From IMG/VR virus record IMGVR_UViG_3300013426_000031: 64,000 nucleotides of DNA; one strand, 5' to 3'. Under the pieces are notes generated by a model. It saw only the letters and a list, made by a program, of their open reading frames with translations, did no database searches and had not been told where the DNA came from. Positions 24,780 to 26,090 of this stretch are shown piece after piece. Source of the stretch: a virus. Position 1 is the stretch's first letter, and each line of letters starts with the position of its first letter. Position numbers and translations under genes: made by a program.

Positions 24780-26090
24780 CAAAGGTCAATATATCCAATA
24801 GAAATAAACTACCACCATAATCGCTAACCACTTGTAGGGTCGCCCTTATGCCTACCCGCGCCACTTCTCTCAGCTTACCTCGTTTATTAACTATTGGAAT
24901 ATATTAACTTTTGACCTAATATTAAACTTATAATATTCACCAATAGGAAATGAATATACAGTTTTTAATAATAGGATTTATCATTTTAATAAATAAATAA
25001 TTTTACCTACCTATCATATGTCCTTTTCGTAGTCCAACACGTCTCATTTTCTGCGCCTTTATATGAGAGATTACCAAAATTCTAAATACGCTAGTTGGTA
25101 ATGGCTTTTTGGTATGTGAGCCACAAACATCCCTATTCAGTTTATTTATAGTGGAGAGCTGGCTGGTTTAGCGAATTGTTCCACTACCTAGTTGACCAAG
25201 ACTAGGGCGCTAATCAAATACCTGATACGTATCAGTACGGTTTCCAGATATATCATTTCACCGGATAACAGGTGAGCAAAGCCTTATTCAATTAGATTAT
25301 GTAAGAACCCTACAGCCATAGGAGCAGGTTCCGCAGAGGTCCCTAACGATGTGGGATTGGCTACCCAATGGGATTAATGTGCAAGCCACCGCCTATATTA
25401 GCATCTACATAATTCTGTTTTACAAAGGAAATGATAAGTTATAAATAATAACTTAATTATGATTACACTACGGACCTTCGCCCTACTGGTTAATAATCTT
25501 CATTTTATTAGGTAAATGAGGAGATAAGTCTGTGCTCTAGGTAGCGAACCTAAAACATCTTACCCCAGCATAAGCCAAATCTCATAGAGGATTGACTACC
25601 TCTATCTTTCACCGACCATTCAGAATAGTATTATTTATATCATCCCAATACAAGAATACTGTCTTGGCAAATTTCGGCTACTTGACCCTTGACCTTTTCT
25701 TATAGTGGATTGCGCCACATCAATTGCCAACTCTCTTGGTGGTATTTCCTTGGTTTGACAAGATTACCAGTCTTATCCTAACAAGGATTCGGCATTGCTA
25801 TTCACAATGCTTTCTATTACGAGAGCGAAAAGAACAGGACCTTAAATGCGATTACCCCAGCACAATCTCCCCGTAGCCATGCCCTTCGGCACGTGAACCC
25901 TATATATCACTATATAAGATTTAGAAATATTTCAAAGTATCCTTTGAGTATTTCATTCTACAATCTCCGCAGAGTGGATAGATTTCTCAGCCTTATGGTG
26001 TTAAGTCTGCACTGAGTTGTATTATAACCATAATTAAGTCATTATTTTACTCGGTTCTACGAACCTCGTAGAGGTGAGTATTTTTCAAGT
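24780..26090 (-). ncRNA. ORF-free ~1.3 kb transcribed region: candidate large structured ncRNA
   Basis: No ORF of 60 aa or more in any frame even with TAG read-through. Locally higher GC. Two tandem consensus promoters directly upstream (26098-26148, 26165-26212). Flanked by tRNA genes. Confidence 0.3.

Follow-up and report, generated by a model that had tools for sequence, protein, structure and literature searches.

A ROOL RNA and a second large structured RNA, apparently outside the described families, in a phage transfer RNA island

Layout of the non-coding unit

The interval 24780-26090 of the IMG/VR record IMGVR_UViG_3300013426_000031, studied here within a 64,000-nucleotide (nt) stretch of that record (hereafter the window), appears to form a single non-coding unit on the minus strand, composed of a complete ROOL RNA (Rfam family RF03087) and, downstream of it, a second structured RNA which we refer to as RNA2. 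Two tandem promoters of the form TTGAAA-N17-TATAAT (26203-26175 and 26137-26109), each with 11 of 12 matching positions, fire into the unit and would start a leader of about 60 nt (26041-26100) that contains the hairpins ACCUC-UAC-GAGGU and GGUUC-GUA-GAACC; the transcription start is placed from the promoter position, and the hairpins are read directly from the sequence. The leader is followed by the 588-nt ROOL RNA (25453-26040), by an AU-rich spacer of 29 nt with the hairpin GUUAU-UAUUU-AUAAC (25424-25452), and by RNA2, which can be divided into a conserved 5' domain (25199-25423), a central part (25000-25198) with about 95% identity in the six closest relatives, and a clade-specific 3' extension (24780-24999) made of an AU-rich variable spacer, a long hairpin and a domain closed by a helix of 23 base pairs (bp). 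Directly downstream, another promoter with 11 of 12 matches (24757-24729) marks the edge of the non-coding unit and starts the next one, that of an amber-suppressor transfer RNA (tRNA) gene, tRNA(CUA) (24545-24622). Genes for tRNA-Gln(UUG) (26304-26377) and tRNA-Tyr(GUA) (26215-26299) form the upstream flank, and all of these features lie on the minus strand.

An earlier note on this DNA had described the interval as a stretch of raised G+C content, free of open reading frames and driven by promoters between tRNA genes, and had put forward a large structured RNA of the ROOL or GOLLD type as a candidate. Its account of the flanking tRNA genes, of the two promoters firing into the interval and of the one beginning the next unit agrees with the layout given above, and G+C content is indeed 0.36-0.42 over 25050-26100, against a window mean of 0.33. 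With ATG, GTG or TTG starts and the standard code, no open reading frame of 60 or more amino acids occurs in 23939-26180, as the note had stated, and stop-to-stop frames of 80 codons are lacking over 2600 nt (24041-26640), the longest such run in the window, ahead of one of 1189 nt. The further claim that the interval stays free of frames even when TAG is read through is not exact, as a stop-free frame of 167 codons then opens on the plus strand (25574-26077). This frame is antisense to ROOL and is absent from the three closest relatives (L025, L030 and L118, where L numbers label related loci or contigs), whose longest frames (90, 121 and 87 codons) lie elsewhere; because of this absence, we consider it a chance frame. 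What the earlier note missed is that ROOL covers just 588 nt out of roughly 1310, the remainder being a separate structured RNA outside Rfam.

The promoters belong to a set that recurs along the window: the extended motif TTGAAA-N17-TATAATATAT occurs 13 times, always on the minus strand, where shuffled sequences lead one to expect 0.07 copies. A simple scan for minus-strand terminators found none inside the unit. Since promoters lie at both edges and no minus-strand terminator was found between them, ROOL and RNA2 are likely co-transcribed. We are highly confident in the overall explanation of the interval as a single minus-strand transcription unit, non-coding and bounded by promoters, within an island of tRNA and other non-coding RNA genes. 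The region is kept at 86-88% identity in related phage contigs. Comparing 23900-27450 by blastn with 50,697 GenBank phages returned tRNA matches only and no cultured relative, and annotation of the neighbouring proteins with PHROGs and Pfam gave no classification of the phage.

The Infernal search of Rfam proposed in the earlier note returned a complete ROOL match on the strand into which the promoters fire. In Rfam 15, the match to RF03087 scores 318.4 bits, against a gathering score of 99.1, with an expectation value (E) of 1.9e-72, and aligns the whole model (positions 1-574 of 574) over 588 nt; non-canonical pairs are few, and the stretch aligned with low confidence coincides with the variable linker of the family (model positions ~355-398). 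Another family that had been named, GOLLD, was unmatched in the window at E<=1. Complete orthologous copies in L025, L030 and L118, scanned with Rfam in the same way, score 320-323 bits, and ROOL is found at 85-88% identity in five related IMG/VR contigs (51-188 kb) in which the order ROOL then RNA2 is kept. L025, L030 and L118 have about 30 nt more between ROOL and RNA2, and in L031 this spacer is alignable only in part.

ROOL RNAs have a mean length of 581 nt and occur in phages, prophages and bacteria of several phyla, often near tRNA genes (PMC5737381). The surroundings in the window are typical in this respect, with tRNA-Tyr/tRNA-Gln 175 nt upstream and tRNA(CUA) 830 nt downstream. By cryogenic electron microscopy (cryo-EM), the ROOL RNA env-120 was shown to fold without protein into a homo-octamer, a hollow cage some 280 A wide that contains the variable linker (PMC12286853), and recent cryo-EM work found both ROOL and GOLLD, two RNAs of phage tRNA islands that rank with the largest phage and bacterial RNAs lacking a known function, to be hollow RNA-only cages; the function of ROOL is unknown (PMC12286853, PMC5737381). 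By homology, the ROOL of the window would be expected to form an octameric cage as well. With the full model matched at three times the gathering score, in a phage and next to tRNA genes, it resembles the described ROOL RNAs (Weinberg et al. 2017; Kretsch et al. 2025) closely, and what distinguishes the locus is local, namely the tandem consensus promoters, the TAG-recoded phage and the second large RNA 29 nt downstream. The ROOL half is a further member of a known family and ordinary by itself. RNA2 is not itself ROOL.

Conservation, fold and family of RNA2

In the close relatives first found, positions 25415-24765 downstream of ROOL are 87-89% identical, a level similar to that of ROOL itself, and 25412-25003 are about 95% identical in close relatives. 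Differences between these relatives include compensatory changes, with UCCC/GGGA replaced by CCUC/GAGG or CCCC/GGGG and CCUAGU/ACUAGG by CCUAAU/AUUAGG. Weak similarity to a 402-kb phage contig first pointed to a set of conserved words, which were then used to search for more distant members. The 19-mer CTGCTCCTATGGCTGNAGG occurs at 37 IMG/VR loci, 32 of which share extended similarity with RNA2 and are true relatives, and at 25 loci of a genome collection, of which 11 are true relatives, all on contigs from metagenome bins; the other 14 fall within protein genes, match by chance and were left out. With another pattern, AATATAGGCGG-N15-45-TCGTTAG, we obtained 8 further members with a differing 19-mer, and 13 of its 21 new loci were dropped as the covariance model described below gave them no confirmation. 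Altogether, about 46 relatives of RNA2 were identified in large phage contigs and metagenome bins, the latter labelled Paludibacteraceae, Bacilli, Mollicutes, Clostridia, Acutalibacteraceae, Eubacteriales and Nanosyncoccus and derived mostly from faecal or gut samples. None of the loci found belongs to an isolate genome. More than 30 other phage contigs carry the 225-nt conserved domain in the absence of ROOL, with scores of 147-191 bits.

These members share a fold that we described with a covariance model, R1, built from a hand-written nested structure of helices P1, P2, P4, P5, P6 and P7 (223 positions, 40 pairs). The window, which is one of the seed sequences of the model, scores 184 bits over model positions 1-223, and members outside the seed score 146-181 bits. 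All R1 helices of the conserved 5' domain are present in the window between 25199 and 25423. The domain opens with a long-range helix, P1 (25413-25406 with 25303-25296), which encloses P2 (25392-25387 with 25351-25346) and the hairpin P4 (25332-25304); P5 (25284-25282 with 25272-25270), P6 (25269-25261 with 25247-25240, with the loop UGAAAUGAUAUAU) and P7 (25235-25222) follow on its 3' side. P4 is a near-invariant hairpin, UGCUCCUAUGGCUGAAG, and carries the near-invariant UGCUCCUAUGGCUG(A/U)AG.

Three pseudoknots were left out of R1. The first, P3, is of the H type with P2, and pairs GGGA at about 25343-25340 with an upstream UCCC, that is, the four bases following UCGUUA with four bases in the P2 loop. 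It can form in 28 of 36 sequences, against 11.9 +/- 2.4 with permuted partners, and uses 19 different 4-mers. PK2 (25239-25237 with 25230-25228) pairs the loop of the P7 hairpin back to its own 5' flank, joining CGU just 5' of P7 to ACG in the P7 loop. It is paired in 37 of 37 sequences, with CG, GC and GU (30, 6 and 1 sequences) at one pair and UA and AU (30 and 7) at another, and a further form reads AAGU/ACUU. P3 and PK2 are accordingly supported by covariation. PK1 would join AUAG at 25396-25393 to CUAU at 25321-25318, through pairing of the P4 loop, CCUAU, with AUAGG; both strands are invariant save in the divergent L041, where the change is compensated (CAUAC/GUAUG), and we regard PK1 as likely.

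An observation made outside the RNA2 family bears on this last pair of elements. Five small phage contigs carry, outside tRNA arrays, tRNA-like genes of about 115 nt (L095 6530-6660, L097 402-516, L105, L109 2936-3053 and L116 3965-4079), the one in L095 lying in a replication/recombination module. Each has the acceptor, D and T arms of a class II tRNA-Leu-like molecule and, in place of the anticodon arm, AAUAUAGG together with a small hairpin and with the hairpin P4 of RNA2, GAGCUGCUCCUAUGGCUGAAGGCUC. This suggests that PK1-P4 is a functional unit able to act on a tRNA body.

The covariation analysis in homologues that the earlier note had named as a check revealed compensatory changes in RNA2. 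In a plain MAFFT alignment, RNAalifold finds double changes in 13 of 24 pairs. In the alignment made with R1, whose counts lean towards the structure to which it was fitted and ignore phylogeny, 93.2% of paired cells can pair, against 73.6% in column shuffles, 30 of the 40 pairs show changes on both sides, and the covariation score is 0.469, compared with 0.152 in shuffles, none of 500 attaining the observed value, and with 0.106 or less after shifting the partners by 1-3 columns. All eight pairs of P1 covary, with four to six pair types each. The central part contributes hairpins at 25122-25103, 25102-25070 and 25067-25043, the stem P8b (CCUAGU..ACUAGG) and a UUAGCG/CGCUAA helix, and shows pairing-preserving changes both at GGCU/AGCC and at ACCAA/UUGGU. 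Across the family, P8b covaries as six different fully paired stems, and it is the only place in the 3' 400 nt of the window's RNA2 at which family-wide homology could be traced. Beyond it, the 3' extension holds a long hairpin (24975-24915) and the 23-bp helix closing the 3' domain (24913-24891 with 24801-24780), in which relatives show one compensatory change from A-U to G-C. This helix could be a processing stem of the type cleaved by ribonuclease (RNase) III. Across the family, the 5' domain and P8b are conserved and the 3' domain varies by clade; one member, L120, is without the P5-P7 arm.

RNA2 did not correspond to any family in Rfam 15 over the ranges searched, which were E<=1 for the window, E<=10 with permissive filters for six other members, and the gathering score for 32 loci. 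GOLLD (RF01998) remained unmatched to RNA2 at each of these levels, and no model of RNase P RNA, transfer-messenger RNA (tmRNA) or group I introns overlapped RNA2 in the same searches. A full-text search of the literature on the invariant strings and on newly described large phage RNAs returned no description of RNA2. It therefore looks like an RNA class of the GOLLD/ROOL type that lies outside the described families. The likeness to GOLLD consists in a large, pseudoknot-rich RNA with a conserved and a variable part, located in phage tRNA arrays; RNA2 is, however, smaller (330-570 nt versus more than 800), and its conserved half is the 5' one, whereas that of GOLLD is the 3' one. Phage tmRNA shares the neighbourhood, with the tmRNA of L104 lying about 850 nt from its RNA2 in the same array, but in contrast to tmRNA and tRNA-like RNAs, RNA2 is without acceptor stem, T arm and tag reading frame, and tmRNA models do not match it. 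The tRNA cluster of phage T4 also encodes stable non-tRNA RNAs of about 120-140 nt, "species 1 and 2", which are matured from a shared precursor by tRNA-processing enzymes. To our knowledge, these have been assigned no function and have no multi-pseudoknot fold, and we know of no sequence relation between them and RNA2.

Genomic setting and possible roles of RNA2

All RNA2 loci are tRNA arrays on large viral contigs, mostly of 60-400 kb. In at least 27 of about 33 distinct loci, P1 begins 0-40 nt after the end of a tRNA gene that encodes its CCA, another tRNA directly follows RNA2 in at least 14, and where both flanks could be read RNA2 fills the gap between the two tRNA genes, which measures 327-571 nt. 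The upstream tRNA species is variable (Tyr, Gln, Ser, Thr, Gly, Met, Glu, Ile or Phe). The window copy does not directly follow a tRNA, with ROOL upstream in its clade and a promoter downstream, although the island around it is still a tRNA array; it thus differs from the rest of the family in context, not in fold. Within the short flanks covered, a tRNA(CUA) gene is present for about 14 loci and not for about 20 others; the link of RNA2 with an amber suppressor and TAG recoding does not appear to be universal.

Related tRNA arrays contain further RNAs. Partial matches to OLE RNA occur in L093 (187-276), L051 (507-590) and L035 (2050-2137), at 53 bits against a gathering score of 50 and over model positions ~436-595, and full RAGATH-33 RNAs lie between tRNA-Leu and tRNA-Gly in L025 (6233-6345), L031 (1488-1600) and L117 (9998-10110), at 135-139 bits. 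The window has no OLE and no RAGATH-33 match.

From this arrangement, a sequence of events can be proposed. Transcription from the tandem promoters (26203-26109) would yield a 60-nt leader, ROOL (26040-25453), the RNA2 core from 25423 to about 25000, and the hairpins down to 24780. In the window clade, RNA2 would then be matured from a ROOL-RNA2 precursor. In other phages it may be released by the enzymes that mature tRNAs, with RNase Z or 3' trimming acting upstream and RNase P downstream; maturation by RNase P and RNase Z is predicted because RNA2 nearly always comes directly behind a tRNA gene and, where both flanks could be read, extends to the next one. Both RNAs might subsequently serve as stable, trans-acting structural RNAs in the takeover of translation by the phage, ROOL as a cage and RNA2 by offering its invariant loops as a platform that binds, or a decoy that diverts, a factor targeting tRNAs or ribosomes. 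This guess was drawn from the phage reading TAG as sense, having its own suppressor tRNA and carrying about 16 tRNA genes, and a role of this kind, with RNA2 as binding site or decoy, is a tentative possibility that we hold with less than even confidence.

Other roles appear less probable. RNA2 is unlikely to be a self-assembling scaffold like ROOL. Similarly doubtful is the proposal that it represents a third large "ornate" phage RNA class which physically works with ROOL, either as a tethered partner or cargo of the cage or as a multimer of its own held by the invariant loops, in a phage that, given the vault protein homologue described below, may build both RNA and protein cages. The partner or cargo idea stems from the position of RNA2 29 nt behind ROOL on what would be the same transcript, comparable to tRNAs in the GOLLD linker, which sometimes carries them (PMC12286853). 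An identity as a ribozyme is improbable. Whichever role applies, a third unrelated RNA of comparable complexity in the niche of ROOL and GOLLD, sometimes in tandem with ROOL, widens what explanations of these RNAs must cover. With 330-570 nt, three pseudoknots and long invariant loops, RNA2 is also a target for structural biology, and the window clade offers a natural construct of ROOL plus partner for studies of co-assembly.

Several points weigh against the reading of the interval as a co-transcribed ROOL and a second, distinct structured RNA, besides the lean of the fitted alignment noted above. Folded as a single sequence, 24765-25452 shows no unusual stability (z = -1.18). The 3' end of RNA2 is uncertain: a profile of the canonical 3' domain, searched with nhmmer, finds nothing in the window clade, and it also misses the L051 clade as well as L099 and L122, both of them short forms. 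Promoter matches are what transcription, co-transcription and RNA ends are all deduced from. Fragments of RNA2 could also be part of the 8,495 candidate structures, unnamed and 29-151 nt long, that a 2023 survey mined from IMG/VR (PMC10690425). Finally, among 91 loci with the ROOL pattern, RNA2 occurs only in the window clade, in the clade of the 402-kb phage, where tRNA-Tyr lies between ROOL and RNA2, and as one weak match. We thus rejected RNA2 as a general companion of ROOL, since a search with the model detected it in only 8 of 92 sources, and a functional tie between the two RNAs is for this reason unsupported.

Among the alternative explanations, the one that survives best is that RNA2 acts in cis, as a structured spacer through which nearby tRNAs (in the window, the suppressor tRNA) would be processed, stabilised or transcribed. 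RNA2 nearly always directly follows a tRNA, the next gene is an amber-suppressor tRNA in the window, L094 and L098, and the window copy ends in the RNase III-like 23-bp helix. However, an RNA of 330-570 nt with three pseudoknots and long near-invariant loops goes far beyond the needs of a processing signal, the neighbouring tRNA species vary, and in the window a promoter separates RNA2 from the suppressor tRNA, and we give this explanation little weight. An RNA class distinct from the known families, as favoured here, would also be mistaken if RNA2 were a divergent GOLLD, RNase P RNA, tmRNA, group I or II intron, OLE or Y-like RNA beyond the reach of Rfam. Distant relatives can escape Rfam models, and size class, pseudoknot-rich fold and a home in phage tRNA arrays are shared with GOLLD and ROOL. 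Against this, no Rfam match was obtained at the thresholds tried, the RNA2 sequence has neither the conserved boxes of RNase P RNA nor the tRNA-like ends of tmRNA, and a true tmRNA is encoded elsewhere in the L104 array, all of which makes a divergent known RNA very improbable.

A comparably poor prospect is that ROOL alone is functional, the next 680 nt being a non-functional trailer, a remnant in decay or a spacer ahead of the tRNA promoter. The insignificant stability of the single-sequence fold and the AU-rich, clade-specific character of the last 220 nt would fit such a scenario, but the domain occurs without ROOL in the other phage contigs counted above, 30 of 40 pairs and two pseudoknots are compensated, and RNA2 is conserved about as well as ROOL. 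That the interval is a protein gene under a non-standard code is hardly conceivable: the phage does read through TAG and the frame at 25574-26077 is TAG-open, but that frame is antisense to a 318-bit ROOL and missing from the closest relatives, no frame in RNA2 exceeds 90 codons under TAG or TGA read-through (TAA read-through opens one of 103 codons, 25188-25499), and substitutions track base pairing rather than codon positions.

Other features of the island and the phage

The phage itself is a large TAG-recoded gut or rumen phage. TAG is read as sense in a subset of genes, as five long frames contain 7-17 in-frame TAGs each (30385-32649, 27536-28876, 50068-51534, 5817-7118 and 21068-23947; minus strand), with 7 in the 959-codon frame 21068-23947 and 17 in 30385-32649.

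On the same strand of the island, a tRNA-Leu(UAA) gene (24053-24427) is interrupted between U34 and A35 by a group I intron of 290 nt (24392-24103). The Rfam family Intron_gpI matches at 24123-24381 with 43.5 bits, below the gathering score of 50, and an E of 5.9e-9, and ARAGORN calls tRNA-Leu(taa) once the gene is spliced in silico. L031 and L128 carry the same tRNA-Leu without the intron. The U34/A35 site is also used by introns of cyanobacterial and plastid tRNA-Leu genes. A tRNA-like gene of about 140 nt (26575-26719, minus strand), missed by ARAGORN and matched by the Rfam tRNA model at only 32 bits, has regular acceptor, D and T arms. Its anticodon arm contains or adjoins about 65 inserted nt that are closed by the 7-bp stem UGCAAGU/ACUUGCA; the gene would be a tRNA-Ala(UGC) if the insert follows the loop. 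In addition, hairpin-bounded elements of 80-125 nt recur between tRNA units (26446-26572, 24470-24540, 24628-24715 and 27250-27330; minus strand), and also in L051, L035 and L093. They are formed by a stem AAGACNNN...NNNGUCUUG, which covaries between phages, with ACAGCAAA at the 5' side of the loop. The copy at 26446-26562 has a T-arm-like hairpin and a weak match to the Y RNA-like family YrlA (29.8 bits against a gathering score of 69).

Among the proteins encoded in the window is a full-length homologue, 824 amino acids long, of the eukaryotic major vault protein (MVP) (13660-16134, minus strand), with matches to the Pfam families MVP_shoulder (1e-20) and Vault_3 (3e-9). Phage MVPs were first reported in 2023 (bioRxiv 10.1101/2023.11.10.566534). 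A phmmer search of PDB sequences links residues 325-799 to rat and human MVP (E 7e-20), and identity is 88-90% within the window clade and 40% to homologues in the huge phages LR756500, LR756501 and LR756503. A DUF2828 + DUF7788 protein is encoded beside the MVP gene, and an SPFH/Band 7 and flotillin protein nearby (16668-18185 and 8534-9916, respectively, both on the minus strand). The DUF2828 + DUF7788 architecture may be a helical part plus a vWA domain, as in Ro60 or TEP1; no PDB sequence matched this protein. These neighbours of MVP, along with the Y RNA-like match, raise the idea, from sequence resemblance, that this phage may form a vault-like or Ro-like ribonucleoprotein.

Within the non-coding RNA island itself, a gene with its own tandem promoters (26749-27105, minus strand) encodes a protein of 118 amino acids resembling Rv2632c (PF08962, 27.1 bits against a cut-off of 25). 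Its homologues, with 38-57% identity, are found in the tRNA/ROOL/RNA2 islands of distant phages (L012, L010, L048, L093, L133, L114, L035, L051 and L102), and this protein may be considered a candidate RNA-binding partner.

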